This document shows, piece after piece, positions 18,526 to 60,688 of a stretch of 64,000 nucleotides of DNA (its first letter is position 1; every line of letters begins with the position of its first letter). The stretch comes from an uncultured Candidatus Saccharibacteria bacterium (GTDB taxonomy: Bacteria > Patescibacteriota > Minisyncoccia > Phycocordibacterales > UBA6065): positions 89,481 to 153,480 of the forward strand of contig CAYJCZ010000001.1 of the NCBI GenBank assembly GCA_964368835.1. The letters are read 5' to 3'. Made by a program: the position numbers and the translations under genes. Under the pieces are notes generated by a model. It worked only from the letters and a program-made list of their open reading frames with translations, was not told where the DNA came from and ran no database searches.

Positions 18526-19332
18526 TTAAATTGTGCCACTAGATGTAGTGCTTGTTGTAGATGTAGAGGTAGTCGTTGTTGCTGGTCGTGGTTTGCTGTC
18601 ATCCCTTCGATCCTCTCTTCGGTCCTCTCTACGAACATCACCCTGCATACCCTTCATATCTGCAACAACCTTCATAAGTGCCTGTCGCGCATCCTGGATT
18701 GCAGTCTGAGCCTTTTTTACGGCCGTCTTAAGCGCTTCTGAGGTAGTTTTTGGTGTGGTGGTTGATACTGGTACTGAGAAGACTGCTTGTACTGTGGTGC
18801 TTGCAGTAGCGAGCTTTGAAACAGCAATCGCGAGATCAGCTCGAGCGGCAGTGGTTGTTGCACCTGCAGTCTCGAATTTTGTAAGACGAGTTTCTATTCG
18901 AGTTTTCGTAGAATTTAGTTCTGCCAAAGCACGAACGAGTCTTTTGCCAGAGTTTTCAAGAATGTTTGAGAGTCTCTCTGAGATATCATCCTTCTTATCC
19001 TCTCTTCGATCCTTGATTTCCTCCTTTCGCTCCTTCAAATCCTCCTTTTTCTCCTCACGCTCTTCGTTCATGTCGTCTTTCTTGTCTCGAAGTTCAGTCT
19101 TCTTTGCTTCGATCTGAGCCTTAAGAGCGTCTCTCTTTGATTCAAGCTCTTCCTTCTTTTTTTCGAGCGCCTCTTTGTTGCTAGAGGTCGCTGCTCGCGC
19201 TTTCACATTCACTTTAACTGGCGTTGTTGAGCCATTTACAGTGAGTTCAAGTGACGCTTCTTCTGCTGAAACGGTGAGCGCTCCAGAGAAGATAAATGCC
19301 ACAGCCGCGAATAATGCTACTGATGTTTTCAT
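18526..19332 (-). CDS. secreted charged coiled-coil protein with Thr/Ser-rich C-terminus
   Basis: Signal peptide, K/E/R/D-rich heptad-like repeats, REDRREDRRDD, then TTTTSTSTTSTTSSG. Confidence 0.5.
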   Translation of the reverse strand: MKTSVALFAAVAFIFSGALTVSAEEASLELTVNGSTTPVKVNVKARAATSSNKEALEKKKEELESKRDALKAQIEAKKTELRDKKDDMNEEREEKKEDLKERKEEIKDRREDKKDDISERLSNILENSGKRLVRALAELNSTKTRIETRLTKFETAGATTTAARADLAIAVSKLATASTTVQAVFSVPVSTTTPKTTSEALKTAVKKAQTAIQDARQALMKVVADMKGMQGDVRREDRREDRRDDSKPRPATTTTSTSTTSTTSSGTI

Positions 19333-20020: not shown

Positions 20021-21163
20021 CTACTCAGAAACAGGTTCTGCGGTCTCTGCCTTTGCAACTCCAACTGGTCGAATGTCGATCTTCCAACCGGTAAGTTTTG
20101 CTGCAAGACGTACGTTTTGACCACCTTTACCGATAGCAAGTGACTGCTGATCTTCTTTTACCTCTACCGTGGCTGTTTTTGTAACTTCATCGAGAACTAT
20201 TGATGAAGGTTTAGCTGGAGAAAGTGAATCTTCGATAAACTTCTTTGGATCTGCTGACCATTCGATAATATCGATCTTTTCGTTGTTAAGTTCGCTTGTA
20301 ACAGTCGTAACTCGAACACCTCGCTGTCCAACAAGTGATCCAATAGGATCAATGTGTGAATCATGAGACATAACAGCGATTTTTGATCGTGATCCTGCCT
20401 CTCGAGCGACTGCCTTTACTTCAACAGTCTTATTTGCGATCTCAGGAGCCTCGATTTCAAAGAGTTTTTCGAGGAATTTTGGATGTGATCTAGAAAGTTT
20501 AAGGAATACGCCTCGAGGAGACTCTTCTACGCGGAAAAGGTATGCGCGAAGTCGCTCACCTTGCTTGTAGTGTTCGCTTCGGATTTGCTCTTCAAAGGGC
20601 AAAATACCCGTTGCACGGCCCATATCTACGAAAATAGTGCCTCGTTCGATTCTCTGGACGGTTCCCGAGACAATATCACCTTCACGCTTGCCGTATTCAC
20701 CCAAAACTGACACTTTTTCAGCTTCTCGGATCTTCTGAATGATGACCTGCTTTGCTGTTTGAGCTGCAATTCGGCCGAAATCATCTTTTGGTTCAAGAGG
20801 GAAGAGCATTTCCTCATCGAGTTCCACGTTTTTCTTGATCATTCGTGCTTCGTCAATCCAGATATGGTGTTCTGGGTTGTATCGAACACGTTCATCGTCA
20901 TCTGCGAGCTCAGGAAGCTCTTCTCCCTCAGGAATATCGATAACTTTTGTGTCATCTACGGCGATTTTTACCTGAAAGAACTCGGTTGCGCCTGTATTTA
21001 CGTCAAAAGTAGCTCGAACAATCTGTCCGCGCTTGCCGTACTCCTTCTTATAAGCGGTAGCTAGAGCCATTTCTATGGCTTCGAGTATCTTTTCCTTTGG
21101 AATTCCTCGTTCTTCCTCGAGCTGGCCGAGTACAGAATGAATTACTTTAAGATCAAACAACAT
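20021..21163 (-). CDS. nusA: transcription termination/antitermination factor NusA
   Basis: N-terminal NusA domain, S1 domain and two KH domains. About 380 aa. Confidence 0.9.
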   Translation of the reverse strand: MLFDLKVIHSVLGQLEEERGIPKEKILEAIEMALATAYKKEYGKRGQIVRATFDVNTGATEFFQVKIAVDDTKVIDIPEGEELPELADDDERVRYNPEHHIWIDEARMIKKNVELDEEMLFPLEPKDDFGRIAAQTAKQVIIQKIREAEKVSVLGEYGKREGDIVSGTVQRIERGTIFVDMGRATGILPFEEQIRSEHYKQGERLRAYLFRVEESPRGVFLKLSRSHPKFLEKLFEIEAPEIANKTVEVKAVAREAGSRSKIAVMSHDSHIDPIGSLVGQRGVRVTTVTSELNNEKIDIIEWSADPKKFIEDSLSPAKPSSIVLDEVTKTATVEVKEDQQSLAIGKGGQNVRLAAKLTGWKIDIRPVGVAKAETAEPVSE

Positions 21164-21340
21164 GGGTGATATTTCTATTAATAACGATGCTAATAAAGTG
21201 CCTATTAAACAAGAAAGTCCGCCCGGAGGGCGAACTTACATACTTCATAGCATATATTTTTATCTGGCATTTGTCAAATGAAAGCTATACACAGGTTATC
21301 TACACAATTTAGGTTTTGACTTGTCCATATCCTTGCTATT

Positions 21341-22594
21341 ATGGTATGGATGAAATCTCTTTTTGTAAAAATTCTCTTCGTTCTTTCACTCTCTGTACTT
21401 CCTCTCTTTGCATCCGCTGATGTTGGAAACGTCACTGGCTACGCATGGTCCGACAATATTGGTTGGATTAGTTTTACGTGTCTTAACACGAGCACGTGTG
21501 CAAGTAATGGTGGTAACGACTACGGTGTTACAGAAAATCCTGGTGGCAGTCTCACCGGCTACGCATGGTCAGATAATATAGGATGGGTCAAATTTGGCGG
21601 TCTCGCTAGTTTTCCATCTGGAGCGGGTACTGTTGCTCAGAACGCTCAGCTTGTTGGAGCAAATCTTGTTGGATGGGCACGAGCGTGTGCCGGAACAGCA
21701 GGAGGAGATTGTTCAAGCATGACAAGTCGAACAGACGGTTGGGATGGTTGGATTTCACTTGGAGGTACAAACTACGGTGTAACAAAAGTTGGTCAACAGT
21801 TTACGGATTATGCATGGGGCGGAGATGTAGTAGGTTGGATACTTTTTGACATACAAAATAAATTCCCAGCTGTCTGTGCTGGATGTGGAGTTATAGGTGG
21901 CGGCGGAGGAAGCAATGCGGATCTCGATGTGCGAAGTGGTGGAGCAGGTGGACCATCAATAGTAGGTAACGGTGCAGTCCTCTACGGCACTATCCCAACT
22001 TTTGTGTGGACGATCGTATCTCCGACAATGACATGCGATATCACAAAAACAGCTGGAGGCACAGCATTCACCTCTATATTAGGAGAGACCACATCAGGCT
22101 CTCGTGCCGGCAATCCTCTTAGCTCAGCTGGTCTTCATACATATCATCTTGAATGTACAAACCCTGCATATACAAAAGATGTAAGCTTTACCGTAGCGCC
22201 TCAAGTCACAGGCTTCTCAATGGGTGGAACTGAAACGGCTCGCATTCAATTCTTGGGATCAGGTCCTGCGAATTCTGAAATAAAGTCTCTATTTGTAACT
22301 CCTGGAGGTGGATTTAGTAATCCAGTTACAATTTCTATAACAGGTTTTCCTACTCCTCCTGCAGGAACCACCTTCACATATTCACTCGGAGGTAGTCCGT
22401 TTGTAGCAAATCCACCATCAGTTGTGATCAGTGATCCGTATCTCGCAGGTCAGACATTCCAGATTCGTTCATCAAGACCGATTTCAAATACATACACAAT
22501 CACTCTCACAGGTACAGCAAGCGGAGCATCAAATGTAACAAAGGACATCATTCTTGATCCTCGAGCATTTGATCCTTCATTTAATGAAATTTAA
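21341..22594 (+). CDS. secreted protein with novel Trp-rich GYAWSDNIGWI-x-F repeats
   Basis: Signal peptide, then at least four repeats: GYAWSDNIGWISF, GYAWSDNIGWVKFGG, DGWDGWISLGG, DYAWGGDVVGWILFD. C-terminal Thr/Ser/Gly-rich beta-rich region. No family recognised. Confidence 0.6.
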   Translation: MVWMKSLFVKILFVLSLSVLPLFASADVGNVTGYAWSDNIGWISFTCLNTSTCASNGGNDYGVTENPGGSLTGYAWSDNIGWVKFGGLASFPSGAGTVAQNAQLVGANLVGWARACAGTAGGDCSSMTSRTDGWDGWISLGGTNYGVTKVGQQFTDYAWGGDVVGWILFDIQNKFPAVCAGCGVIGGGGGSNADLDVRSGGAGGPSIVGNGAVLYGTIPTFVWTIVSPTMTCDITKTAGGTAFTSILGETTSGSRAGNPLSSAGLHTYHLECTNPAYTKDVSFTVAPQVTGFSMGGTETARIQFLGSGPANSEIKSLFVTPGGGFSNPVTISITGFPTPPAGTTFTYSLGGSPFVANPPSVVISDPYLAGQTFQIRSSRPISNTYTITLTGTASGASNVTKDIILDPRAFDPSFNEI

Positions 22595-22600
22595 ACGAGC

Positions 22601-22870
22601 ATGAAAAAGATTATTCTCATAATTGTTGTGTTGGCCGCGGTTGTCCTCCTTGTGCTATGGAAAGTATCGCAGGATAATGTAAAGCAAGAATCAACTTCAG
22701 TAGAAACTGCCCGAGCGCTCGACAGACTGGCGGCGCCGACACCGGAAGAAAAGCCTCTTACACCAGAGCAACAGGAAGCAATTCAAGGTTTATCAGCTCC
22801 TCAGACTCAGAAATCAGAGGCGCAGATGAAACAAGAAGCTGAAGCGTTACGATTATTAGAAGGAAAATAA
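22601..22870 (+). CDS. small secreted/membrane-anchored hypothetical protein
   Basis: N-terminal hydrophobic helix, Gln/Glu/Ala-rich C-terminus. Tightly packed in the operon. Confidence 0.4.
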   Translation: MKKIILIIVVLAAVVLLVLWKVSQDNVKQESTSVETARALDRLAAPTPEEKPLTPEQQEAIQGLSAPQTQKSEAQMKQEAEALRLLEGK

Positions 22871-22886
22871 AAGCACAACAAAACCC

Positions 22887-23474
22887 ATGACTCGAATTAC
22901 AACGATTACCATAGCAACACTAAGCGCACTCTCACTCACTCTCTTTCCACTTGGAGCAGGTGCGTGGACAGGTCCGTCCGCAACACCGCCAGGTGCAAAC
23001 ACTGCGGCTCCTCTTAATGTGTCTGGCAACTCTCAGGCAAAGGCAGCAGGACTTCTTCTTGCAACTTCGGCGGCTACGTACGGTCTTCTTGTGCAGAATG
23101 GAAACGTGGGTATTGGGCTTCTCAATCCAGTCTACAAGCTTGAGATTGCAGGGAGTGTAGGAGCAGGTGCTTTCTTCTATACGTCAGATCGAAATCTCAA
23201 GAAGAATATTTCTCCATTGAACGGCTCTCTTTCAAAAATTTTGAGCCTCGAAGGTGTTTCGTTTGCTTGGAAGGATACTGGAGCAAAGAGCGTGGGCCTC
23301 GTAGCGCAGGATGTTGAAAAGGTGTACCCAGAGCTTGTTCATACAAATCCTCAGAGTGGTATCAAGTCTGTTGAATACGGAAACCTTGTAGCACCACTTA
23401 TTGAAGCAATCAAAGAACAGCAGAAGCAGATTGATCAATTAAAAGCAGAGGTGAAGGCACTTAAGGGGGAATAA
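22887..23474 (+). CDS. secreted Gly/Ala-rich protein with C-terminal intramolecular-chaperone (peptidase S74-like) domain
   Basis: C-terminal SDRNLKKNI...LSLEGVSFAWKD...VGLVAQDVEKVYPELV...VEYGNLVAPLIEAIKEQQKQIDQLKAEVKALK matches the tail-fibre/endosialidase C-terminal chaperone domain pattern (SDxRxK auto-cleavage region, IAQE..PELV, LIEA.KEL, coiled tail). Confidence 0.65.
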   Translation: MTRITTITIATLSALSLTLFPLGAGAWTGPSATPPGANTAAPLNVSGNSQAKAAGLLLATSAATYGLLVQNGNVGIGLLNPVYKLEIAGSVGAGAFFYTSDRNLKKNISPLNGSLSKILSLEGVSFAWKDTGAKSVGLVAQDVEKVYPELVHTNPQSGIKSVEYGNLVAPLIEAIKEQQKQIDQLKAEVKALKGE

Positions 23475-23478
23475 ATAT

Positions 23479-23928
23479 ATGGATCCAATAATTCAAGCAA
23501 ACCCAGAGCAAAAGCAATCTCCGAAATTTGTGTTAGTTGGGATACTTTTGTTAGCTGCTGTTGGTCTTGGTGGCTACATCTATATGACACCTGGTACCTC
23601 TAAGACAGTAGAGCAAGATGGATATACCCAAAAAGAGGCAGTGGAATATGTAAAGACATCTGCAACAAATGCAGTAGCTGCAAATTCAGTTAACATCTCT
23701 GGTTGCGCACCTGATGTAAAAGTAGCTCAGGTAAATATGGGGGATGCTTTGGAATTTAATAACCCCGACAGAATTGGTCACACGATTTGGTTCAGTCCCG
23801 ATCAAACATACCTCATTCCACTTCAAAGTAAGGTAAGTATCAAGCTCAATTTTTTGAAATTTCCAGGCGTAGTTGATTATATGTGCGATTCCAAGTTTGT
23901 CGGCCAGGTTTTTATTACCAATAAATAA
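23479..23928 (+). CDS. hypothetical membrane-anchored protein
   Basis: N-terminal TM ([20 protein letters not shown]), about 125 aa extracytoplasmic domain with 2 Cys. Confidence 0.45.
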
Positions 23929-25811
23929 TGAAAGCGCTAACTATGAGAGCTTTAATACGAAAAATCGGAATAGTTTGCTTTACTGTTTTGTCACTTGTGG
24001 TGGTGCTTGGGAATAATGCTTTTGCCGCTGAGCGCTATCAAGTGGATCCTGGGCAGACGGCTATAATTGATGAATGGGGTGTTTGTTACAACGTAACAAA
24101 CAATGTTCCTAATCCACCTGTCTTTGTCCCAACTAGAACATCGGGGGAATGGAGTTCATTTTATACAAACGTACCGCCTAATGTGCAGTTGACACCATGT
24201 GTTGCTGGAATTCCTGGGTGTATGGATCCTGTGGCTACAAATTATGATCCTGCAGCAACTATAAATGTTGGATGTACATATGCACCCGGCTGCGATCCTA
24301 TTGCTGGAACCACTTGTACCTCTGGTAGCAATGTGTGCGGCCAGTACACGACAGACAGTTATGACTGTACAGGTAGTTGTCCTGCGGTCACACCGCCTGA
24401 CACAAACTGTCCTATGATTGTTGTGGGATGTACAAGTCCCGGCGCTCTAAACTATAATCCCGCAGCTAATGTGAGTGGTCTTTGTCTATGGCCAACAGGA
24501 TGTATGACTCCTGGTTATGACAATTATGATCCAGCTGCTGTGGTTCCTGATTCTTGTAATTGTAATGCTGGTAGGTCATGGAACGGTAATGCGTGTCAGG
24601 ATGATGCGCTTCCAATTGACGGAGGTTGGTCGGCTTGCAGTGTTTCTTGTGGGGGTGGAACTCGTAGCTGTGATAATCCAGCACCAGCAAACGGAGGTGC
24701 GGCTTGTACCGGTTCAACAGATTGCAACACACAGGCTTGCCCTACAGGTCCTGTAGATGGAGGTTGGTCAGGATGGGGACCTTGCTCTGCTTCTTGCGGA
24801 GGAGGAACTCAAAGCCGTTCATGTGATAACCCTGTACCTGCAAACGGAGGCGCTGCCTGTTCTGGTAGTTCATCACAAGCTTGCAACACTCAGGCGTGTT
24901 TAGCGGGATGTACAACTGAAACCTGTGGAGCAACTGCTCCTAATGGTGATGTTTGTGGTTCACCTGTTGATCCTGGATGTGGTGGCGGTCCAGTCGGACC
25001 TCGTGGATGTAGTACTGAAACTTGCGGAGCAGTAGCTCCTAATGGAGACATTTGCGGCTCACCAACTGACCCTGGATGTGGTGGCGGTCCAGCATGTGTT
25101 CCAAGTTGTGCAGGAAGGACTTGTGGGGCAACTGATAGTTGCGGCACAGGAACTTGCGGTTCACCAACTGACCCTGGATGTGGTGGCGGTCCAGCATGTG
25201 TTCCAAGTTGTGCAGGAAGGACTTGTGGGGCAACTGATAGTTGCGGCACAGGAACTTGCGGTTCACCAACTGACCCTGGATGTGGCCCAATTGGCCCTGC
25301 AGGTTGTACGACTGAGTCTTGCGGAGCAACTGCTCCCAACGGTGATATGTGTGGAGGGGTTTGTGATTCAGGTTGCCCAGCAGCAGGATCACCTGGATGT
25401 ACTGGAGCTTGTACTACAGAAACCTGCGGTGCTCAATCTCCTAACGGATCTGTCTGCGGTAGTAATTGTGATGCGGGATGTCCTGGTGCTGGTGGACCAG
25501 GTTGTGGAGGAGGCGGGGGCGGAGGAGGACCTACGTGTGACCCAACATGCGGGTGCGGAATGCACGAGGAGTTCGTTTGCGATATTATGGATTTGGAATG
25601 CACGTGCGATTCATCCCCGTCTGGATGTAGTTTAGATACTCCACCGACATCATGTTCAGCTTTTGAGTGTAATTGTAACGAATATGGCGAGTATCCTAAT
25701 TGTACTGATTGGTACGGTAATCCCGGAGGATTCAGTTGTACGGTTACGGGTTGTGGTATGAACTGTAATCTTGCCTGCACCATAGGTTCAGATCGATGTG
25801 TGCCAGATTAA
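23928..25811 (+). CDS. secreted cysteine-rich protein with two thrombospondin type-1-like repeats and tandem 34-aa Cys-rich repeats
   Basis: Signal peptide. TSP1-like [39 protein letters not shown] and [43 protein letters not shown]. Then [28 protein letters not shown] repeats. Confidence 0.7.
25081..25284 (+). repeat. perfect 102-nt tandem duplication (2 copies) inside the Cys-rich gene
   Basis: gtggcggtccagcatgtgttccaagttgtgcaggaaggacttgtggggcaactgatagttgcggcacaggaacttgcggttcaccaactgaccctggatgtg occurs twice back-to-back. It encodes identical 34-aa units, with older diverged copies flanking. Confidence 0.85.
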
Positions 25812-25844
25812 ATTTAAAAGTCCTGTTAAGTTTATATAATTAAA

Positions 25845-26396
25845 ATGAACAACACACTTAAGATAGTCATCGCCTTACTTCTATGTATTTGTGTTGGATA
25901 TTTTATTTATAGTAAACAGACAAAGAGTACATCGCCACAATTGAATAATAGTGGAACAACTAGCATAAATACTTATAAGTTTGCCGAAGGAAGTTTGCCA
26001 AATAATCCGAATATTAAAACCAGTGAACAGAAGTTTCTTTTTGAGAATCTTTTGAAGCGAGATTCAACATTGGAGGAAAGAAAAAAAATTCTAACTATGG
26101 CAGTAAATGCAGCCGTGGATACCAATGCGCTCGTCCTTAGCGAAAATTGCCTGTCTAATCCGCCTGTAATTAAAATGACGTACGCTTCGAAGTTAAGTGT
26201 CTCAAATACATCAAAAACTGATCAACAGATGATAATTGGTACAAGCAGTGTAATATTGCCAAAAAATTCAGTAAAGACTGTCACGCTTGAGCAGTTGGGA
26301 GTAGGGCAGCTTGCTTCTAAAGGAGTAGTGTTGAAGAGTTATGCCTGCACAGGATTAGATTATCCAGCTGGGTTCATTGTTGTATATCCAAACTAA
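25845..26396 (+). CDS. hypothetical membrane-anchored protein
   Basis: N-terminal TM, Asn/Ser/Thr-rich extracytoplasmic region. Confidence 0.45.
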   Translation: MNNTLKIVIALLLCICVGYFIYSKQTKSTSPQLNNSGTTSINTYKFAEGSLPNNPNIKTSEQKFLFENLLKRDSTLEERKKILTMAVNAAVDTNALVLSENCLSNPPVIKMTYASKLSVSNTSKTDQQMIIGTSSVILPKNSVKTVTLEQLGVGQLASKGVVLKSYACTGLDYPAGFIVVYPN

Positions 26397-27660
26397 AATT
26401 TTCAACAGGCAATTTTTTGCTTTTAGTTGCCTTTTCTTAATTGTATTAAGTGGCTTTTTTCTACGCTTTTATAGTATTGGTTCGCAGTCTTTATGGATAG
26501 ATGAAATTTATACTGTGAACGCTGCATTTTCTGTACTCGAACACGTTATCCCTCTACTTGACTCCGGTCAAATATATACAAATAATTTTGTTTCTGTATA
26601 TCTCACGGCTCTTACTATTAAGATTGCTGGGTTTGATGTATTTAATCCTTGGGCCTCAAGGTTACCGTCTGTTTTTTTTGGAACCTTACTCATCCCATTA
26701 GTGTATTTTCTTTCAAAGAAAGTATTCGAGAATGAAAAAGCTGCATTTTTTTCGGCGTTTTTAATTGCTTTTTCGTATCTTGAAATTGCATGGTCTAGGC
26801 AGGTAAGAGGATATGCTGCACTAGCTTTTTTTATAACCATAGCTTTGTATCATCTTTGGAATTATCTTTTGGAAGCAAAAACACGGAATTTGTTAATATT
26901 TTTTGTGTATTATGTACTCGCATGTCTATCTCACTGGGCTGCACTTACATTTACACCTTCATTACTATTAGTTCTCGTAATTAAAAAACAGATACCAGTT
27001 GAAAAGCTGTGGGGGAAGATATTGTTTTTTACGCTATTTGTAATACCTCCTTTGATTCTTTTAAAATTTAAGTATCCGGTTTCAGGAGGGATTTTCCTAA
27101 GGTATGCAGTCTTCCCATTTTTTCCTATCGTGAGTATTCTTTTTGGCTATATTGTTGTTAGGTTATTTGAGTACCCTTCAGTAAAAGGCAGGTTAGTTCC
27201 AAAATTAGTTTTGGCAGGTTGTGTTGCGATAATTGTTTTCATGATGCCACTTCAGCTTATTCCACTTAAGACACACGAACTTTATCTCCAGGCCCCCCAG
27301 CCAGATTTTAATAAGGTTTTTTCAATTATTCTAAATGAAAGAGAGAGTGATGATGTTGTCATCACATTGCGTCCAGTTTTGAGTCGTCTGTATTTAGGTA
27401 GCGACGGTCTATGGCTCTCGCTTAAATCAAAAAAAGTTGATGAAATTGATATGTACGTTGGAGCAAAACCACTTGTTAAATCATCCGAGTTAATGGACGT
27501 AATTAATTTTGGGAGTGGTTTTATTGTGGTGGATGGGCACTCGTTTTTCACTATTCTACTGAAAAAATATCCAGAAATTTTTGAGCATCCCAAGCTTAAA
27601 CTTAGAATGTATTCCTGTGGTGCAAAACAATTAGACTGTATCTGGCTTTACCGTTTTTAA
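26377..27660 (+). CDS. GT-C fold glycosyltransferase (PMT_2/ArnT-like, GT39/GT83 type), polytopic membrane protein
   Basis: About 11 TM helices with a first-loop DE motif (SLWIDEIYTVNAA) characteristic of PMT/ArnT-type polyprenyl-phosphate-sugar dependent transferases. Confidence 0.6.
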   Translation: MLYIQTKIFNRQFFAFSCLFLIVLSGFFLRFYSIGSQSLWIDEIYTVNAAFSVLEHVIPLLDSGQIYTNNFVSVYLTALTIKIAGFDVFNPWASRLPSVFFGTLLIPLVYFLSKKVFENEKAAFFSAFLIAFSYLEIAWSRQVRGYAALAFFITIALYHLWNYLLEAKTRNLLIFFVYYVLACLSHWAALTFTPSLLLVLVIKKQIPVEKLWGKILFFTLFVIPPLILLKFKYPVSGGIFLRYAVFPFFPIVSILFGYIVVRLFEYPSVKGRLVPKLVLAGCVAIIVFMMPLQLIPLKTHELYLQAPQPDFNKVFSIILNERESDDVVITLRPVLSRLYLGSDGLWLSLKSKKVDEIDMYVGAKPLVKSSELMDVINFGSGFIVVDGHSFFTILLKKYPEIFEHPKLKLRMYSCGAKQLDCIWLYRF

Positions 27661-28836: not shown

Positions 28837-28868
28837 CAAACCAATGAATTCGTTCATTGGTTTTTTAT
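28837..28868. terminator. bidirectional terminator
   Basis: AAACCAATGAA-ttcg-TTCATTGGTTTTTTATTTT. Confidence 0.6.
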
Positions 28869-29122
28869 TTTCGTGAAACGAAGGAAAGATTATACAGCGC
28901 CAGAAAAAAAGGAAATAAGTTTGCAAGAAACCCAACTAAATCCTTTTTGCCTAACGAAAAGTAAGCCATAAGAAGCAGACTGCCAGATATGCTTGTGTAC
29001 CAAAAGTAGACAGGAAGTACACTTTTTTGAGCCTGTCTTGATGCAATAACCTGTATGACCCACCGTAAGGAGAAAAGCGCTACGCCTGTGAATCCGACTA
29101 TATTCCAGAAATAACTAGTCAT
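28865..29122 (-). CDS. LAB_N (lipid-A-disaccharide-synthase N-terminal like) small membrane protein
   Basis: WNIVGFTGVALFSLRWVIQVIASRQAQKSVLPVYFWYTSISGSLLLMAYF matches the about 90-aa LAB_N family usually paired with a GT2 polyprenyl-phosphate glycosyltransferase. Start moved to the internal Met. Confidence 0.6.
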   Translation of the reverse strand: MTSYFWNIVGFTGVALFSLRWVIQVIASRQAQKSVLPVYFWYTSISGSLLLMAYFSLGKKDLVGFLANLFPFFLALYNLSFVSRK

Positions 29123-29768
29123 TTTTAATTTTCGATTTAAATATATAAATATCAACTAATCCTTTAATGGTTCTATTGCTGAGATTATATTTCGTCTTCC
29201 CCGCAAATCTTTTTCTTGCCTGGATAGGGACCTCAATCAAAGTCAGACCTGCACTCTCCAAAAAACTTGGAATAAACCTGTGCATCCCTTCAAAAAGATG
29301 TAAGTGGGGAAGGTGACTCTTTCGAATAAGCTTCATTGCACCAGTATCCCGAGCGCTGTCCCGTGTAAATATACTTCTTACCCGGTTTGCGATTTTTGAG
29401 GCCGCACGATTCACGATACTCCTTTTTCTATTGATTCGATAGCCACATACAAAATCCGCCTGTAGCGAAGCCTCAAGTAATTTATGAATATCCTGGGGAT
29501 CACATTCACCATCTCCGTCCATGAGTACACATAATTCGTGACTTGCCTGATTAAGACCGTGCCAGGTCGCATGGCTTTGGCCTTTTCTCTCTGCAAAAGA
29601 GAGTAATGTAACGTTTTCCCGCTCTGAGACAATGGCCTGTGTTCGGTCTGTACTGCCATCGTTAACCACAAGTATTTCTGCTGCAGGGTGCATTTTTTCT
29701 ACCTCGTCGAGCACAAATCTAATGCTTTCTTCTTCATTGTGGACAGGGATAATAATAGAAAACTTCAT
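29115..29768 (-). CDS. GT2 family glycosyltransferase (polyprenyl-phosphate sugar synthase, DPM1/ArnC-like)
   Basis: MKFSIIIPVHNEEESI...VVNDGSTD...DGDGE GT-A DxD-type motifs. About 217 aa. Confidence 0.8.
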   Translation of the reverse strand: MKFSIIIPVHNEEESIRFVLDEVEKMHPAAEILVVNDGSTDRTQAIVSERENVTLLSFAERKGQSHATWHGLNQASHELCVLMDGDGECDPQDIHKLLEASLQADFVCGYRINRKRSIVNRAASKIANRVRSIFTRDSARDTGAMKLIRKSHLPHLHLFEGMHRFIPSFLESAGLTLIEVPIQARKRFAGKTKYNLSNRTIKGLVDIYIFKSKIKND

Positions 29769-29835: not shown

Positions 29836-30582
29836 TTACTTTGCGAGGGCTGCTTTAATCTGGCTTTCAAGGCTGTCTGCTGAGACTGCGCCGCCGAGTA
29901 CTGTATTACCCTTTGCGGTAACAATCACGCTGTAAGGCGTACCTTTTGCTCCAGCTGAGATGCCACTCTGGTACTGCGCTTCTACTTTAGCTGCATATTT
30001 GCCGCTATCAAGGCAGGTCTGGAACTTTGCTCGATCAAGACCAATATAAGCAGCGATGTTTGGAAGTTCTGATGCTTCGAGTCGGTTGTTTGTTGGGCTT
30101 ACTTCAAACAATCGGTCGATATATTTCCAGAATCCATCATTTCCACCAAGTTCTGCTGCACATTCAGATGCTTCAGCTTCTTTTCGTGCCTTTGAATGGA
30201 GAGCATCAAGAGGGAAGTGTCGATATACCCACGCAACATCAGTTCCAGCAAATTTTGCTGTGACTGTCTTGAGTGTTGAATGGAACTGCTTACAGAACGG
30301 ACATTCGAGATCAGAATATTCAACTATGACTGCTTTTGCCTTTGCGTTACCACGGATATGGTCAGCAGAGGTAACTGCTGGAACCTTGACCGCTGCTGCA
30401 GCTGTAGGAGCCGCAGCCGTAGGATTTGCAGCTACTGCTGCAGTTGTTCCTTTTACTGCCATGCCTCCAACATTGCTTAGGCCAAAATAAAGTCCTGCGC
30501 CAATAAAGAGTCCCGCGAGGGCAACTGAAAGGGGAAGCGTGAGCCAATCCCTATAATCTGATTTTTGATCAATGTGTGTCAT
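29836..30582 (-). CDS. DsbA-like thiol:disulfide oxidoreductase, membrane-anchored
   Basis: N-terminal TM, Ala-rich linker, thioredoxin-fold CPFC active site (YSDLECPFCKQFH). Confidence 0.75.
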   Translation of the reverse strand: MTHIDQKSDYRDWLTLPLSVALAGLFIGAGLYFGLSNVGGMAVKGTTAAVAANPTAAAPTAAAAVKVPAVTSADHIRGNAKAKAVIVEYSDLECPFCKQFHSTLKTVTAKFAGTDVAWVYRHFPLDALHSKARKEAEASECAAELGGNDGFWKYIDRLFEVSPTNNRLEASELPNIAAYIGLDRAKFQTCLDSGKYAAKVEAQYQSGISAGAKGTPYSVIVTAKGNTVLGGAVSADSLESQIKAALAK

Positions 30583-30652
30583 GCGTATAAACGTGTGAAA
30601 AAATAACAGGTTGATTGTATCACGCTCGATATATTTTTGTTATGCTTTACGT

Positions 30653-31105
30653 ATGTTCAAGCGACAGTTTAAAAGTATGTGGCGCACCAATGCACCCAAG
30701 AGGATTTTCAAGAAAATTATCCTCGCGCTTCTTATCACCCTCGTTGTGTACGGTATCGGTTCGCTTCTGGTTAAAGACACCGTTGAGGCACCGCAATCTC
30801 CGGTCGCAACAGTGTTTATGACAAAAGATGGCTTTGTTCCAACAGAAATTGCCATAAAGCGTGGCCAATCAATTGAATTTATCAATAGTTCACCTGTTGG
30901 ATGTTTGGCAGGGGACGCGGAGTGTAATGTCTGGCCGGTATCAGATCCGTATCCATCTCACGATCTTTATCCGGAGTTTAATTCACAAAAACCAGTACAG
31001 CCGGGCACTTCCTGGATTTTCACCTTTAAAAAATCAGGTAATTGGGGTTTTCACGATCATTTAAGGTACAAGAATCGTGGTGTGATCCGTGTTATTGGCG
31101 AGTAA
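30653..31105 (+). CDS. membrane-anchored protein with possible cupredoxin-like domain
   Basis: N-terminal TM, then a beta-rich segment with Cys/His residues (CLAGDAEC...GFHDHL). The family call is tentative. Start moved to the internal Met. Confidence 0.35.
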   Translation: MFKRQFKSMWRTNAPKRIFKKIILALLITLVVYGIGSLLVKDTVEAPQSPVATVFMTKDGFVPTEIAIKRGQSIEFINSSPVGCLAGDAECNVWPVSDPYPSHDLYPEFNSQKPVQPGTSWIFTFKKSGNWGFHDHLRYKNRGVIRVIGE

Positions 31106-31165: not shown

Positions 31166-32914
31166 ATGTACATCGAAGAGCAACAACTAAAAACCTTCAT
31201 CGTTGATTCCGGTCTCGTTTCAAAAAAAGACATCGCTGATGCCGAAAAGGAAGCACGATCAAAAAAAACCGGTCTCGGTGAAATACTTGTTGTACAAGGA
31301 AAGCTATCAGAAGACGATCTTCGTAAAACCCAAGCGTATATTTTGGGAATTCCTTTCGTGGACCTCAAAGGGCAGAAGATTGATTTTACGGTTCTTTCAC
31401 TTGTTCCAGAACCAATTGCACGTAGCCACAATATAGTCGCTTTCAAGAAAACGTCTGACACGCTCGAGGTTGCCATGCTTGATACCGACGACCTTCACGC
31501 AATCGACTTTATTAAAAAGAAGGTGGGTCTGCGCATCATGCCGCGTCTGACCGATGCTGAATCAATCAAATCGGTTCTACTCCAGTATCAAAAAAGCCTC
31601 AAAGCTGAGTTCGGAGACCTTATCAAGAAGGAAACAGCTACTCTAAAGGCTCTTTCAGAGGAAATAGGGGGTAAGGCAAACGAGGGGGATCTCAAAAAGA
31701 TGGCCGAAGACCTCCCGGTTATTCGTGTCGTTGATACGCTTTTGAAGCATGCCATCATACAGGGTGCATCCGACGTTCATATTGAACCGATGGAAAAGGA
31801 GCTTTTGGTGCGATATCGAATTGACGGTCTTCTCCACGATGCTATGGTGCTCCCTAAAGAGGCAGAAACCTCCATTACGGCGCGTATCAAGGTGCTTTCG
31901 AATCTGAAGCTTGATGAGAAGCGTTTGCCTCAAGACGGGCGTTTTAAAGTCGAAATGAACGAAGAGAAAGTGTCGCTTCGTGTGTCGATTTTGCCAACAT
32001 TTTATGGTGAAAAGACAGTTATGCGACTTTTGCGAGAATCTGTTTCAGGTTTTAGTCTTGAGCACCTTGGTTTTCATGGGGAAGCGCTCGAACGTATCCA
32101 TGCAGCAACAAAGCTTGCGACGGGTATGATCCTTGCGACGGGACCTACAGGATCTGGTAAGTCTACAACCCTCTATACAGTGCTTGATATTTTGAATACA
32201 CCTGACGTAAACATCTCAACTGTTGAGGACCCGGTTGAATATCAGATGCCTCGAGTTAATCAGACCGCTGTTCGCCCAGATATCGGCTTTACATTCGCAG
32301 TGGGACTACGAACTCTCGTTCGACAAGACCCCGATATCATCATGGTGGGAGAAATTCGAGATAACGAGACTGCTGCGCTTGCCGTAAACGCTGCACTTAC
32401 TGGTCACTTGGTGCTTTCTACGCTTCACACCAACTCTGCTGCTGGTGCAATGCCACGACTTCTTGATATGAAGATCGAGCCGTTCCTTCTTGTATCGACG
32501 CTTTCGGTGGTGATTGGTCAGCGACTTGTGCGAAGACTCACCGAATCTCGAGAGCGCAGGCCTCTTACAAAAGCGGAACTCACTGCACTAGGCAAAGTAG
32601 TGGATCTTGATCGAATGCTCAGTATCTTGCGCGCAGAAAAAGCAATTGGTCCAAAAGATGAGTGGGACAAAGTTATGTTTGGAGTGCCGCGAGTGACACC
32701 CGATAACGATGGATACAAAGGGCGAGTTGGTATTCACGAAGTTTTGAAAATGTCTCCAACTATTAAGGAGCTTATTATGAAAGGGGCAACATCGGGCGCT
32801 ATAGAAGAACAAGCAAAGCGAGAGGGAATGGTTACGATGCTTGAAGACGGTATTTATAACGCTGCTCAAGGATATACGACTATCGAAGAGGTGCTTCGTG
32901 TGGTGACGGAATAA
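31166..32914 (+). CDS. pilB: type IV pilus assembly ATPase PilB (GspE family)
   Basis: N-terminal GSPII_E N-domain, Walker A LATGPTGSGKSTTLYTVL, Asp/His boxes, Walker B. About 580 aa. Confidence 0.9.
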   Translation: MYIEEQQLKTFIVDSGLVSKKDIADAEKEARSKKTGLGEILVVQGKLSEDDLRKTQAYILGIPFVDLKGQKIDFTVLSLVPEPIARSHNIVAFKKTSDTLEVAMLDTDDLHAIDFIKKKVGLRIMPRLTDAESIKSVLLQYQKSLKAEFGDLIKKETATLKALSEEIGGKANEGDLKKMAEDLPVIRVVDTLLKHAIIQGASDVHIEPMEKELLVRYRIDGLLHDAMVLPKEAETSITARIKVLSNLKLDEKRLPQDGRFKVEMNEEKVSLRVSILPTFYGEKTVMRLLRESVSGFSLEHLGFHGEALERIHAATKLATGMILATGPTGSGKSTTLYTVLDILNTPDVNISTVEDPVEYQMPRVNQTAVRPDIGFTFAVGLRTLVRQDPDIIMVGEIRDNETAALAVNAALTGHLVLSTLHTNSAAGAMPRLLDMKIEPFLLVSTLSVVIGQRLVRRLTESRERRPLTKAELTALGKVVDLDRMLSILRAEKAIGPKDEWDKVMFGVPRVTPDNDGYKGRVGIHEVLKMSPTIKELIMKGATSGAIEEQAKREGMVTMLEDGIYNAAQGYTTIEEVLRVVTE

Positions 32915-52290: not shown

Positions 52291-53505
52291 ATGCTTTTTT
52301 CATTTAAGGCAGTTCGAAAAGACGGTTCTCACTATGAAGGTACGCTCGAAGCGACTGATAAGTTTGCTTTGTATCGTGATCTTCATGCAAAAGGGGATAA
52401 CATTTTGTCTGTAAAAGAGAAATCTTCGGGAGGAAATTTAAAGAAGTTCTTCTCTATGTCATTTGGTGGGGCTAAAATGGCGGATCGTATTGCGTTTGCA
52501 AAAAATCTCGCAGCAATGCTTAAGGCGGGATTGCCTCTCGCCCGAGCGCTTACAGTGTTGGAGCGTCAGATGACGGGAAAGGTGTGGAAACCTATTTTTA
52601 AGGTATTAAATGAAAACCTAGCCAAAGGTCTCACACTCTCGCAGTCCCTTTCGATGTTTCCAAAGACGTTTTCTCCTTTGTTCGTATCTATGGTTGGGGC
52701 AGGTGAAGAGTCCGGCTCTCTTTCTCAATCATTAGGCATTGTCGGAGATCAGCTCGAAAAGTCCTACATGCTTCAAAAGAAAGTACGTGGCGCCATGATG
52801 TACCCAGCAATTATCTTGGCAATCATGCTTATAATTGCCATCCTCATGCTTGTATACGTGATTCCAAAACTCACTGCAACATTCAAGGAGTTTAATACTG
52901 AGCTTCCATTTGCGACAAAACTTATTATCGGAGCAAGCGACTTCTTTGCAAGCTACTATATCCTCATAATACTAGTGCTTATTTTACTTGTAACAGGTTT
53001 TTATGTGTTCTCAAGGACAGCGCTCGGTAAGCATGTTATTGGGTGGAGTATTTTGAGGATCCCTATCATTGGTCCAATTTCAAAAGAAGTTAACTCAGCT
53101 CGAACGGCTCGTACACTCTCATCACTTCTGTCATCAGGTGTAGAAGTTGTTACATCCATAAAGATCACATCAACAGTCGTCCAAAACGTGCATTACAGGG
53201 ATATGCTTACTGACACAGCTGAAAAAATACAGAAAGGTGCAACACTCCAGTCACTTTTTACGCCTCGTCAGGATATTTACCCATCATTTGTGTCTGAAAT
53301 GATTGGAGTGGGAGAGGAGACTGGTACTCTTTCAAAAACTCTCTTTGAGGTAGCAATTTTCTATGAGAATGAGGTTGAACAGAAGACAAAAGACATGTCA
53401 ACAATCATCGAACCATTCCTTATGGTTTTCATGGGTGTGGCCGTAGGATTCTTTGCTCTCGCCATGATCTCTCCAATTTACTCACTCTCAAATAATATCT
53501 CGTAG
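52291..53505 (+). CDS. pilC: type IV pilus assembly inner-membrane platform protein PilC (GspF family)
   Basis: Two GspF repeats each with TM helices. About 404 aa. Confidence 0.85.
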   Translation: MLFSFKAVRKDGSHYEGTLEATDKFALYRDLHAKGDNILSVKEKSSGGNLKKFFSMSFGGAKMADRIAFAKNLAAMLKAGLPLARALTVLERQMTGKVWKPIFKVLNENLAKGLTLSQSLSMFPKTFSPLFVSMVGAGEESGSLSQSLGIVGDQLEKSYMLQKKVRGAMMYPAIILAIMLIIAILMLVYVIPKLTATFKEFNTELPFATKLIIGASDFFASYYILIILVLILLVTGFYVFSRTALGKHVIGWSILRIPIIGPISKEVNSARTARTLSSLLSSGVEVVTSIKITSTVVQNVHYRDMLTDTAEKIQKGATLQSLFTPRQDIYPSFVSEMIGVGEETGTLSKTLFEVAIFYENEVEQKTKDMSTIIEPFLMVFMGVAVGFFALAMISPIYSLSNNIS

Positions 53506-53511
53506 TTCTCC

Positions 53512-53973
53512 ATGTTCGCAGCCCACATAAAAAAGTCAGCAGGGTACACGCTTTTGGAGCTCATGATAATCGTGGCAATTTCATCATTACTGGCTGGTCT
53601 GGCATACACGTCGTTTACTGCTTTTTCTCGAAATGAGGCTTTGGATGCTGGCACTGCCTCGATTGTGGCTGGTCTGCGAGATGCACGAGCACGAACTCTT
53701 GCATCAGTTGATGGTTCGCAATATGGAATCTACATAGAACAGTCAAAATACACGTTATTTAAAGGCGCACTCTATGATGCGGGTTCTAACCTCAACTCGA
53801 TTACCGACTTTAATTCATATATAAAGGCATCTTCAACACTTACGTCGATTGTGTTTCAGAGGGTGACGGGAAATACCACTGCATCTGGTACAATAGATGT
53901 ATACCTTATAACCGATCCTTCTCAGAAAAATACGATATCTGTCGCTTTAACAGGGTTAGTAGATGTAGACTAA
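53512..53973 (+). CDS. type IV pilin/pseudopilin (class III signal peptide)
   Basis: Prepilin motif KKSAG-YTLLELMIIVAI (G then x4 E, hydrophobic helix). Confidence 0.7.
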   Translation: MFAAHIKKSAGYTLLELMIIVAISSLLAGLAYTSFTAFSRNEALDAGTASIVAGLRDARARTLASVDGSQYGIYIEQSKYTLFKGALYDAGSNLNSITDFNSYIKASSTLTSIVFQRVTGNTTASGTIDVYLITDPSQKNTISVALTGLVDVD

Positions 53974-54452
53974 TGAAAAAAGCAAAAGGCTCAACATTGA
54001 CGGAGGTTGTTATCGTGGCCGGCATACTCTCAACAGTATCGCTCGCATTTTTAGGCACATTTGCAGTCATCTCGAAGTTTCATGAAAAAAATCTAAGGGC
54101 TATCAAGGCTGGCCTTTTGGCTGAAGAGGGAATGGAGGCGGTGCGAATTATTAAGGGAAGAGACTTCAATACACTTTCTACTTTAGCTCAGTCTGGACCT
54201 TCCACACCTCAGTATTTAGAGGTGTCACCATCTACATGGAACACAACCACTACTCCAGAAGTGGTCGACAATCTTTACTATAGATATTTTGTTGTAAGTC
54301 CTGCATACAGAACGGTAGATTCAGATCCGACACAATCTTCTGCCGGTAACACACTCGACCCAAACACTGTCTATGTTGATGTCACTGTTGAGTGGCTTTG
54401 GCGTAATGCAACAACATCAAATTCTTATAAGGCTTTCATGACAAACCTATGA
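53973..54452 (+). CDS. type IV pilin-like protein
   Basis: Prepilin motif AKG-STLTEVVIVAGIL. Confidence 0.7.
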   Translation: MKKAKGSTLTEVVIVAGILSTVSLAFLGTFAVISKFHEKNLRAIKAGLLAEEGMEAVRIIKGRDFNTLSTLAQSGPSTPQYLEVSPSTWNTTTTPEVVDNLYYRYFVVSPAYRTVDSDPTQSSAGNTLDPNTVYVDVTVEWLWRNATTSNSYKAFMTNL

Positions 54453-54982
54453 TTTTTCCCTTAAACAAAAATCGAAGCGGCGGATACACCCTTACCGAGA
54501 TGCTCATTACAATCGGGCTTATGACGATGCTTCTTTTGCTCATTGTCGACACTTCACTTTCAATCGCAGCGTCCCATAAGCGCGCACAAAAGTATCTTGA
54601 AATAAATGCTTCTGCCATGGGCGCTTTTTCTAGGTTCTCAAGAGATATTCGAAGAGCAACCTCTGTTGATGAGATCAATAGTGTGATTGGGGCTAGCTCA
54701 GGCAAGTTGGTTCTCAACATGAAGAAGGCAGATGGTACGGATGATGTAACCACTTTTTATCTAGACGGTGATCGTGTGAAAGAAATCTATAATGATGAGG
54801 AAAGAGGGGACATAACTCCTGGTCCGGTCAATGTGACGAATTTAACCTTTAGGTTATTCGAGGATGCTACAACTACCGCGGTTAGAGTTGAACTCACAGT
54901 GGCGCCAGATAACACTGATTTGAATATACCAGCGGTCAATTTTTATAGTACGTATGTGTTACGCGGATCTTATACTCAATAA
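54449..54982 (+). CDS. type IV pilin-like protein
   Basis: Prepilin motif RSGG-YTLTEMLITIGLM. Confidence 0.7.
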   Translation: MIFPLNKNRSGGYTLTEMLITIGLMTMLLLLIVDTSLSIAASHKRAQKYLEINASAMGAFSRFSRDIRRATSVDEINSVIGASSGKLVLNMKKADGTDDVTTFYLDGDRVKEIYNDEERGDITPGPVNVTNLTFRLFEDATTTAVRVELTVAPDNTDLNIPAVNFYSTYVLRGSYTQ

Positions 54983-54985
54983 TAT

Positions 54986-56767: not shown

Positions 56768-56792
56768 AGGTGAATGCTCTTGATAATATGAA

Positions 56793-58640: not shown

Positions 58641-58642
58641 AT

Positions 58643-59248
58643 ATGAATTTTACTAAAAAAAATCTTCGGGGCTTTACGTTAGCAGAAACACTTGTTGCTG
58701 TTGCAATTGTGTCTATCATTGCTATTTCCCTGGGTGTTTTCCAGGGTGACATATTCAAGAAAGAGAGAATAGCCCGCACGCGCATTCTTGCGACAGAACA
58801 AGAACGCATTGCCCTCCGAAGGTTTATAGAAGAAGCGCGTAACATTTCAACATCATCCACCGGAGCATATCCTATATTGGTAGCGGATAGTTTTGCTTTT
58901 ACTTTTTATGCTGATACAGATAATGATAATTTGAAAGAACGATTTCGATATTACATACAAAATGGGAGCTTGAAAAAGGCTGTTATGAAGCCTGTTGGAT
59001 CACCTGCGACATATACCGGGGCAGAAAAAGTAACTACGGTAGTTTCATCTATTGCTACCTCAAGCATGCAGGTGTTTACGTTCTATGACACAAACGGTTT
59101 GACGCTATCGAATCCTGCAAATGTTTCTTCGATTCGTAGCGTCCAGATGAAAGTTGCATCAGTTGTGTATGGTTCAAACGGTGTTGCGACTACGAGTGTC
59201 TCTCAGGAAACCCGCGCGACTTTGAGAAATCTAAAAGATAATTATTAA
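58643..59248 (+). CDS. type IV pilin-like protein
   Basis: Prepilin motif LRG-FTLAETLVAVAIVSI. Confidence 0.7.
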   Translation: MNFTKKNLRGFTLAETLVAVAIVSIIAISLGVFQGDIFKKERIARTRILATEQERIALRRFIEEARNISTSSTGAYPILVADSFAFTFYADTDNDNLKERFRYYIQNGSLKKAVMKPVGSPATYTGAEKVTTVVSSIATSSMQVFTFYDTNGLTLSNPANVSSIRSVQMKVASVVYGSNGVATTSVSQETRATLRNLKDNY

Positions 59249-59249
59249 T

Positions 59250-60662: not shown

Positions 60663-60688
60663 GCCTGTGGGGATGATATAATCCCTCT

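Follow-up and report, generated by a model that had tools for sequence, protein, structure and literature searches.

How do Paceibacteria, among the largest and least understood groups of bacteria, recognise and hold their hosts? The question is open, and only type IV pili and generic immunoglobulin-like (Ig) or peptidoglycan-binding proteins had previously been named for their contact with hosts. A locus that bears on it lies in a 64,000-nucleotide stretch of DNA (GenBank assembly GCA_964368835.1, contig CAYJCZ010000001.1, positions 89,481 to 153,480; hereafter the window) from an uncultured, ultra-small and small-genome member of the Candidate Phyla Radiation (CPR, or Patescibacteria). Eight plus-strand genes, P1 to P8, follow the divergent nusA gene on the way to pilB (Table 1). 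A first-pass annotation had taken P1 to P7 for one operon of secreted proteins that builds a possibly glycosylated fibre and ends in a glycosyltransferase. With somewhat more confidence than doubt, we read the block as a variable, two-layer surface-adhesin island at the nusA–pilB junction of a Paceibacteria genome, in which P1, P2 and P3 are good candidates for host attachment as judged from their sequences.

Only a part of the block recurs widely. The sample consisted of 79 species-level genome loci encoding proteins with the Trp-rich N-terminal domain of P1 (the W domain), and was searched with all window proteins. The closest loci are metagenome-assembled genomes labelled Ca. Paceibacterota, Taylorbacteria, Parcubacteria or Nomurabacteria. 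The W domain, the N-terminal module of mature P3 (P3N) and the S74 chaperone domain were called by hidden Markov models. Across these loci only P1, P2 and P3 are conserved, sometimes together with the first ∼90 residues of P5. Of the 75 W genes, 41 have a P3N gene no more than three genes away on either side, as against 6 of 542 background genes. For the P2-like family of small transmembrane-repeat genes, which was called by a crude regular expression, the counts are 23/75 and 1/542; one or the other is found near 54 of the 75. The order of the module varies (P1-P2-P3 here; P2-P3-P1 in loci L026, L040 and L050), a variation that points to selection for their occurring together.

The module usually occupies one of two junctions. 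A minus-strand NusA gene was found by tblastn upstream of the W gene in 31/55 W-domain loci with at least 5 kb of upstream flank, and a plus-strand PilB gene downstream in 28/57 with enough flank; both flank the W gene in 21 loci, 0.6–8.8 kb apart. The typical layout runs from nusA, pointing away, through the W protein, a small transmembrane protein and zero to three P3N proteins to pilB, pilC and three pilins, and ends with a large protein, tpiA and pgk. At the second site, in about ten genomes, a W gene and a P2-like acidic-repeat membrane-protein gene lie between fusA (EF-G) and tuf (EF-Tu), for example at L027:7362-13482. Loci at this or another ribosomal site are L027, L029, L030, L033, L039, L046, L048, L062, L064 and L069; in L039 a P3N-type gene stands between rpsJ and rplC. 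Surface-protein genes thus sit inside the str/S10 ribosomal operons of these genomes. The flanks nusA and pilB, and the related cassettes between them in many Paceibacteria, are context that the first-pass annotation lacked. Many module-bearing records, L004, L008 and L017 among them, are labelled 'uncultured Candidatus Saccharibacteria'. Their NusA and PilB reach 95–96% identity to those of the window, and the label looks like a placeholder beside the Paceibacterota, Parcubacteria and Taylorbacteria labels of the other close loci.

P1 had been singled out as a Trp-repeat protein of unusual architecture, and it matches no profile in Pfam or NCBIfam, although full-length homologs occur in Paceibacteria down to ∼37% identity. 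Structure prediction of 21341-22594 with AlphaFold2 (mean confidence score, pLDDT, of 84), followed by a Foldseek search, gave a confident barrel and two Ig-like domains resembling the Ig tandems of Gram-positive adhesins and S-layer proteins. The W domain is modelled as a closed eight-stranded β-barrel. The Ig-like domains match the tandem Ig domains of PrgB, AgI/II, SbsC and RbmA in the PDB, most matches to full-length P1 being generic Ig tandems, and Cys232 and Cys272 are invariant among homologs. The W-domain family comprises ∼8,600 cluster representatives at 50% identity with no sequence match in Pfam or the PDB, and merits an entry in a profile database. In 115 of 118 homologs the domain begins at most ∼55 residues from the N-terminus, mostly at residues 20–50, which is directly after the signal peptide. 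Its fusion partners are binding-type modules only (Ig, fn3, PKD, CARDB, LamG, TSP1, propellers) and never enzymes. In P0106, from Ca. Nomurabacteria, thrombospondin type-1 (TSP1) repeats are fused to a W-barrel. A choline-binding or cell-wall-binding solenoid was rejected as an explanation of the Trp repeats, given the closed barrel of the model and the lack of any CW_binding profile match even at E ≤ 10.

The opposite end of P1 carries a short motif that is shared across the family. Among 241 W-domain proteins, Glu stands at position −2 in 205 and Pro at −6 in 181, and position −4 is aromatic or aliphatic, independently of the domains in between. In the genome loci the motif is present on 46 of 77 W open reading frames (ORFs) and on 13 of 1286 other ORFs (Fisher p = 7e-53). 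Most of these 13 are long, have N-terminal signal-like segments and are encoded in the same loci, and the motif marks a wider class than the W family. Carriers outside the family include L006:3639-7190, L009:2405-5071, L020:7707-9908, L024:7631-9922 and L087:16-6690; all are large, most have an N-terminal signal-like segment, and their genes are found adjacent to W genes or on the upstream side of pilB. The tail of P1 is unlike LPXTG, PEP-CTERM or similar sortase and exosortase sorting signals because no transmembrane helix follows the motif. It has low pLDDT, as expected for a short linear motif.

Barrel and tail could be the two ends of a new surface-protein assembly or anchoring system of Paceibacteria, an idea that we put forward as unlikely but worth stating. 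In one version the barrel would bind the tail of a following subunit, so that head-to-tail chains form; in the other its ligand would be the acidic motifs of P2, a protein in which an acidic amphipathic motif (...EQQEAIQGLSAP...) is present two to three times. P3N fibres would attach to this same scaffold. If true, the system would be a modular, recombination-shuffled attachment apparatus that sets the host specificity of episymbionts.

P3 has the architecture of a secreted fibre whose chaperone is predicted to cut itself off. A signal peptide (...GAGA, cut before W) is followed by P3N, a short VGIGxxxPxYKL stalk and the S74 domain; longer relatives have insertions between P3N and the stalk. 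The Peptidase_S74 profile is matched over its full length of 1–58 (PF13884, E = 4.7e-16, 59.3 bits against a cutoff of 22). Sequence matches in the PDB are 6f45, the chaperone of T5 pb1, and 8jov, a tail-fibre chaperone, and the alignment to 6f45 spans the SDRxxK site. In P3 this site reads S100-D101-R-N-L-K105, and S100, D101 and K105 are invariant in 24 homologs. The SDxxxK spacing equals that of the equivalent Ser/Lys dyads of endoNF (S911/K916) and MyRF (S587/K592), which carry out trimer-dependent self-cleavage (PMC8326128). Weak matches to coiled-coil families fall on residues 167–195, the C-terminal end. P3 is predicted to cleave itself as a trimer between Thr99 and Ser100, by the dyad Ser100/Lys105, so that mature P3 would comprise 73 residues (27–99) once the signal peptide is also removed. 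P3N gave no match in a Pfam search, and its P, P, Q and K residues are invariant. Only 15 of 64 P3N proteins have an S74 domain (49 are without), and tandem P3N paralogs with differing C-termini are common in the loci.

The rest of the block changes even between strains. In L001, a contig of a different sample, P1 is identical, and the DNA matches the window at 96.8% identity over 21213-24988, that is, P1 to P4 and the first part of P5. Identity is 91% across the P5 repeats, and homology is gone after ∼25528, a region that covers the C-terminal part of P5, P6 and the start of P7. The L001 P5 has 560 residues rather than 627, and P6 and P7 are 29% and 62% identical. In P5 itself, a signal peptide and a conserved N-terminal segment of ∼90 residues precede three GCxxPxAxNYxPAA repeats, two TSP1 repeats, ∼33-residue CGxxxPNGxxCG units and a Cys-rich tail, for a total of 77 cysteines. 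The TSP_1 match (PF00090) covers two stretches with E = 8.6e-8 and 32.7 bits against a cutoff of 21.6, and the WSxW and CSxxCG motifs are visible. Tandem Repeats Finder (TRF) reports a 102-nt period in 2.3 copies with 99% matches for the DNA that encodes the Cys-rich units. A homolog search with P5 returned mostly metazoan TSP1 proteins and, apart from an identical entry, no ortholog; its N-terminal ∼90 residues recur right after the P3 genes in L009, L019, L020 and L025. TSP1 may be a recurrent CPR surface module.

Homologs of P4 were found only in L001, L004, L009 and L020 among the fetched loci, and P6, GT2 and LAB_N only in L001, L004, L020 and partly L009. P4 to P7 thus appear to form a local accessory part that varies between lineages and strains. 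GC content is 0.37 in P6 and 0.35–0.37 over P6 and P7, as against 0.43 for the window. Because L001 diverges in this way, the P5 repeats are 99% identical and the GC content of P6 and P7 is low, diversification of the locus resembles repeat slippage and recombination between conserved flanks. The proposal that P4, P6 and the product of the gene upstream of pilB (P12) are paralogous cupredoxin-like proteins was dropped, as pairwise comparison did not support it (E = 19 and 0.16); the sole link between P4 and P6 is an intermediate ORF in L009.

The adhesin-island reading arranges these pieces in two layers. The recurring layer would consist of Sec-exported P1, the small bitopic P2 and the Sec-exported P3 fibre, whose chaperone domain would drive trimerisation and then cut itself off, leaving a short trimer that keeps P3N. 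The accessory layer would hold P5, with repeats that expand and contract, P4 and P6, P7 and P8, with GT2/LAB_N and DsbA beside them. The W-barrel and P3N may fix the proteins to the cell envelope, perhaps via P2, and the variable distal parts would bind the surfaces of hosts or partners. Neighbouring DsbA would oxidise the many cysteines, and the target of the GT-C system would be either an envelope polymer or a co-encoded protein. The island would diversify by recombination between conserved flanking genes, as capsule and O-antigen loci do.

Several points weigh against this reading. The surface location is predicted from signal peptides and domain types only, and a mature P3 of 73 residues would be too short for a receptor-binding tip and may be a stub or adaptor here. 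The loci were picked by P1 similarity, which biases the synteny counts toward P1 orthologs, and the crude calling of the P2-like family bears on its counts. When sampled from the side of pilB (24 loci on metagenome contigs, with PilB at least 55% identical and at least 2.5 kb of upstream flank), the W gene is upstream in only 3/24 and either W or P3N in 4/24. In several of these loci nusA lies 130–300 nt from pilB with nothing between. In others the space is filled by secreted proteins of other kinds, some of which end in the tail motif; nusA–pilB is accordingly a favoured position for cassettes of variable surface proteins.

Instead of host-binding adhesins, the module might encode abundant structural proteins of the envelope that form a wall scaffold or a coat like an S-layer. 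Insertion into the str/S10 ribosomal operons of many genomes suggests very high expression, and the W family is very large and widespread. The Ig tandem of P1 resembles the S-layer protein SbsC among others, and the conserved N-terminal domain and C-terminal tail could mediate lattice or head-to-tail contacts. Nonetheless, the partner domains on the C-terminal side are extremely diverse adhesin types, multiple tandem P3N paralogs differ in their C-termini, and cassette turnover at strain level is a better fit to specificity determinants. A purely structural module is for these reasons improbable in our view, and coat and adhesin roles are not mutually exclusive.

Much of the first-pass description of the seven genes was borne out. 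All seven plus-strand ORFs are present and tightly packed (gaps of 6, 16, 4, −1, 33 and −20 nt), each of their products has an N-terminal hydrophobic segment consistent with a signal peptide or membrane anchor, and Pfam profiles place Peptidase_S74 in P3, TSP_1 in P5 and the PMT_2-type GT-C enzyme in P7 above the gathering score. The products are also not of a housekeeping kind; they look like secreted or surface proteins of adhesin type, with Ig-like domains in P1, a trimeric-fibre type in P3, and TSP1 and Cys-rich repeats in P5. The unit, however, does not end at the glycosyltransferase. P8 begins 111 nt past P7 on the same strand, and the one convincing plus-strand terminator lies after P8, with none internal to the unit; on these grounds the co-directional unit probably has eight genes, P8 being the last. 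P8 has a PDZ_6 match just under the 27-bit cutoff (E = 6e-6, 26.3 bits) and no relatives in any fetched locus. It also shows a weak NCBIfam likeness to GspC (E = 0.01), a protein of the type II secretion system (T2SS). PDZ domains bind C-terminal peptides, and P8 could, speculatively, read the C-terminal tail of P1, which is encoded in the same unit.

P7 matches PF13231 (PMT_2; E = 7.6e-10, 39.7 bits against a cutoff of 26.1) and PF02366 (PMT; 30.8 against 22.7). It has at least six transmembrane-like segments and a WIDE motif (LWIDEIY) in the first loop after the first of them, and no detectable sequence match to solved structures; of 82 loci, L001, L004 and L020 are the only ones with a relative. 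GT2 (PF00535, E = 1.8e-25) has as its nearest solved relatives ArnC (5.6e-17), dolichol-P-mannose synthase (DPMS; 1e-9) and GtrB (1e-8), but all its NCBIfam equivalog scores are far under the cutoffs and no sugar is assigned. GT2 and LAB_N had been reported downstream of P7 and are indeed 1.2–1.5 kb away, although on the opposite strand and convergent. Together the three make up a set of the polyprenyl-phosphate-sugar type.

A single seven-gene operon could accordingly build one glycosylated fibre or adhesin, with the GT-C enzyme, fed by GT2 and LAB_N, modifying the proteins encoded upstream. The genes are packed and co-directional without an internal terminator, the lipid-linked sugar set is complete in its three parts (PMT_2 GT-C, ArnC/DPMS/GtrB-like GT2 and LAB_N), and PMT-family enzymes O-mannosylate secreted proteins in Actinobacteria. 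Yet PMT_2-family enzymes also modify lipids and glycans, which leaves the target undefined, and the unit runs on into P8. More damaging is the distribution of the genes. The co-occurrence in related genomes that one system would imply stands for P1-P2-P3, and sometimes the P5 N-terminus, but P4, P6, GT-C, GT2 and LAB_N were found in only three or four close relatives, the three sugar genes accompanying the module in 3 of ∼80 loci. The seven genes are thus not one conserved system. Strain L001 kept P1 to P4 and swapped P6, with P7 at 62% identity. Because L001 loses homology after ∼25528, the glycosyltransferase is a local accessory rather than the defining end of a fibre operon. We find the single glycosylated-fibre operon quite hard to credit.

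About equally doubtful is a role for P1 to P3 as type IV pilus accessories, that is, wall-spanning, tip-adhesin or assembly factors co-expressed with pilB. In the 28 of 57 loci with pilB downstream, the W gene is co-directional with it and sometimes only 250–900 nt away, and pilC, pilins, tpiA and pgk come after pilB. In the metagenomic protein P0325, TSP1 is fused to the type IV pilin N-methylation motif (PF07963 and PF00090), and type IV pili have been proposed as central to CPR–host contact (PMC6744442). P1 to P8, by contrast, show no N_methyl/prepilin motif and no T2SS family match in Pfam or NCBIfam, whereas the true pilins at 53512-59248 do match PF07963. The W and P2 pair also occurs at fusA–tuf and a P3N gene at rpsJ–rplC, far from pilus genes, and pilB is here 19 kb from pilC and the pilins. 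Since sampling from pilB found a W gene upstream in only 3 of 24 loci, and nusA and pilB are often direct neighbours, the module must be dispensable for the pilus and the link positional; the same count rules out the module as obligate head of a pilus operon. A functional connection between module and pilus is possible. The pilus cluster of the window is split between pilB (31166-32914) and a group of pilC, three or four pilins, three large unknown proteins, tpiA and pgk (52291-62582), and the ∼19 kb gap from pilB to pilC holds almost exclusively minus-strand genes and tRNAs. In most related genomes pilB, pilC, the pilins, tpiA and pgk are contiguous.

A degraded prophage or other phage-derived element, suggested by the likeness of the P3 C-terminus to many PHROG tail-fibre families (best E = 3e-35) and to T5 pb1 in the PDB, is exceedingly improbable, because the PHROG matches are confined to P3 residues 86–195, essentially the ∼100-residue chaperone domain, and always fall on profile C-termini, the other genes lack convincing PHROG matches, every protein of the block has a Sec-type signal or an anchor, the chromosomal position is the same across genomes whose NusA is 55–95% identical, no W-domain relatives were found in 2.9 M viral contigs, and there is no viral fold match.

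Table 1. Features of the nusA–pilB region, with positions in the window
Feature	Position	Strand	Remarks
nusA	20021-21163	-	conserved left flank, divergent from island
P1, W-barrel/Ig-like secreted surface protein, 417 aa	21341-22594	+	no Pfam/NCBIfam match
P1 signal peptide, residues 1-26	21341-21418	+	...LFASA/D; hydrophobic N-terminus; Ala26 at least 90% conserved
P1 Trp-rich N-terminal domain (W domain), residues 27-182	21419-21886	+	four GxAWSxNIGWIxF-type hairpins
P1 two Ig-like β-sandwich domains, ~190-286 and 289-410	21908-22570	+	DSSP of model, Foldseek
P1 C-terminal tail P-S-F-N-E-I	22574-22591	+	consensus P-x-[FYWIVLM]-x-E-x-COOH
P2, bitopic membrane protein, 89 aa	22601-22870	+	acidic amphipathic repeats
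P3, secreted short fibre, 195 aa	22887-23474	+	PF13884 at C-terminus
P3N, N-terminal module of mature P3, residues 27-62	22965-23072	+	WTxPxxxPPxxNxxxPxNxxxxxQxKxG
P3 S74 chaperone/autoprotease domain, residues 100-195	23184-23471	+	predicted cleavage Thr99/Ser100
P4, N-terminally anchored protein, 149 aa	23479-23928	+	no family
P5, Cys-rich modular protein, 627 aa	23928-25811	+	Pfam TSP_1
P5 two thrombospondin type-1 repeats, ~residues 222-324	24591-24899	+	PF00090
P5 tandem DNA repeats, 99/102 nt, near-identical	24906-25285	+	TRF; encode Cys-rich units
P6, N-terminally anchored protein, 183 aa	25845-26396	+	no family
P7, GT-C fold glycosyltransferase, 427 aa	26377-27660	+	PMT_2/PMT
P8, N-terminally anchored PDZ-domain protein, 348 aa	27772-28818	+	PDZ_6, sub-cutoff
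Hairpin terminator, 11-bp stem and T-run	28838-28863	+	separates P8 from the convergent LAB_N gene
LAB_N small membrane protein	28865-29155	-	PF07578, E=5e-20
GT2 polyprenyl-phosphate glycosyltransferase, 217 aa	29115-29768	-	PF00535; overlaps LAB_N gene
DsbA-like thiol-disulfide oxidoreductase	29836-30582	-	Thioredoxin_4 and DSBA
P12, small anchored protein	30611-31105	+	directly upstream of pilB; tentative Cupredoxin_1
pilB, T2SSE/MshEN ATPase	31166-32914	+	right flank; PF00437, E=9e-119

Three neighbouring features complete the region. P12 is conserved in L004 and L009; its Cupredoxin_1 match (E = 4e-4, 20.9 bits) is under the 27-bit cutoff, so the fold call is tentative. The terminator after P8 is a single perfect 11-bp hairpin with T-runs and looks bidirectional. 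On the minus strand at 18526-19332, a 268-residue protein gave no match in a Pfam search; it has a signal peptide, a long coiled-coil-like stretch rich in Lys and Glu, and a C-terminal tail rich in Thr and Ser, and its gene is kept beside those for PPase and NusA in both L004 and L005.

How does the island compare with systems already described? The first-pass annotation knew of no equivalent, and none was found in the literature searched; a search for tail-fibre, S74 or thrombospondin proteins in Patescibacteria returned nothing relevant. The CPR surface literature names pili, a DsbA/MdbA-like oxidoreductase and generic Ig, PKD and peptidoglycan-binding proteins, and in the papers searched the W-barrel, P3N and related families are unnamed (PMC6744442; PMC10936435).

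Individual parts have clearer counterparts. The W domain has the same predicted eight-stranded up-and-down topology as avidin and streptavidin, TbpB, HpuA and fHbp of Neisseria, and OmpA-type barrels, and several of these small barrels are surface modules that bind ligands or peptides. The sugar genes recall GtrA/B/C, ArnC/ArnT, Ppm1/Pmt and CsbB/GtcA/YfhO in combining a GT2 synthase, a small membrane protein and a GT-C enzyme, here within 3.4 kb. They differ from those three-component lipid-linked systems in that the GT2 is short (217 aa), its partner is LAB_N rather than GtrA, and the genes are on opposite strands.

As a putative exchange site, the junction resembles the cps locus of pneumococcus, between dexB and aliA, and the O-antigen locus between galF and gnd, which are variable loci with conserved flanks. 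Here too the flanks (nusA and pilB) are conserved, content varies between species and between 97%-identical strains, and some sites are empty. In contrast to those loci, the cargo is mainly proteins and not sugar-pathway genes.

P3 shares with phage endoNF (K1F) and T5 pb1 a Ser/Lys dyad at +5, an extreme C-terminal position of the chaperone domain and a coiled coil. Unlike phage tailspikes and fibres, it is encoded in a cellular genome, has a Sec signal peptide and an upstream part unrelated to phage proteins. Its closest described analogue appears to be the mosaic adhesive trimer (MAT) fibre family of Bdellovibrio bacteriovorus (Caulton et al. 2024; PMC10769870). MAT fibres are trimeric, with a signal peptide, an invariant N-terminal domain that has no homologue in the PDB and an S74 or non-S74 end; the predator displays them on its surface, they bind glycans of the prey, and the same authors consider that they might act together with type IV pili (PMC10769870). 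P3 would likewise be a Sec-exported fibre, chromosomally encoded and not of phage origin, in an organism living on other cells. In the P3N proteins a conserved module follows the signal peptide, ahead of variable distal parts, and may correspond to the invariant N-terminal domain of MATs; both families are split between S74 and non-S74 members (13 and 8 in Bdellovibrio, 15 and 49 among the P3N proteins). The VGIGxxxPxYKL stretch of P3 also resembles the MAT capping-loop motif, with a loop spacing that differs by one residue. There are differences as well. The N-terminal domain of MATs is ∼130 residues long and P3N ∼36, the two being likened by description and not by sequence; MAT fibres are hundreds of angstroms long, as against 73 residues for the predicted mature P3; and the Paceibacteria organism has no outer membrane. 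The linkage of P3N genes to genes for W-barrel and small membrane proteins is unreported for MATs.

Each kind of element is thus familiar on its own, be it the surface adhesin, the S74 fibre, the GT-C system or the variable island. New are a large unannotated W-barrel family with its tail motif, MAT-like fibres in the CPR, and the linkage of the two at two conserved chromosomal junctions. The locus thereby supplies widely conserved candidates for attachment, a putative CPR counterpart of the prey-recognition fibres of Bdellovibrio, and a defined chromosomal hot spot for their probable exchange.

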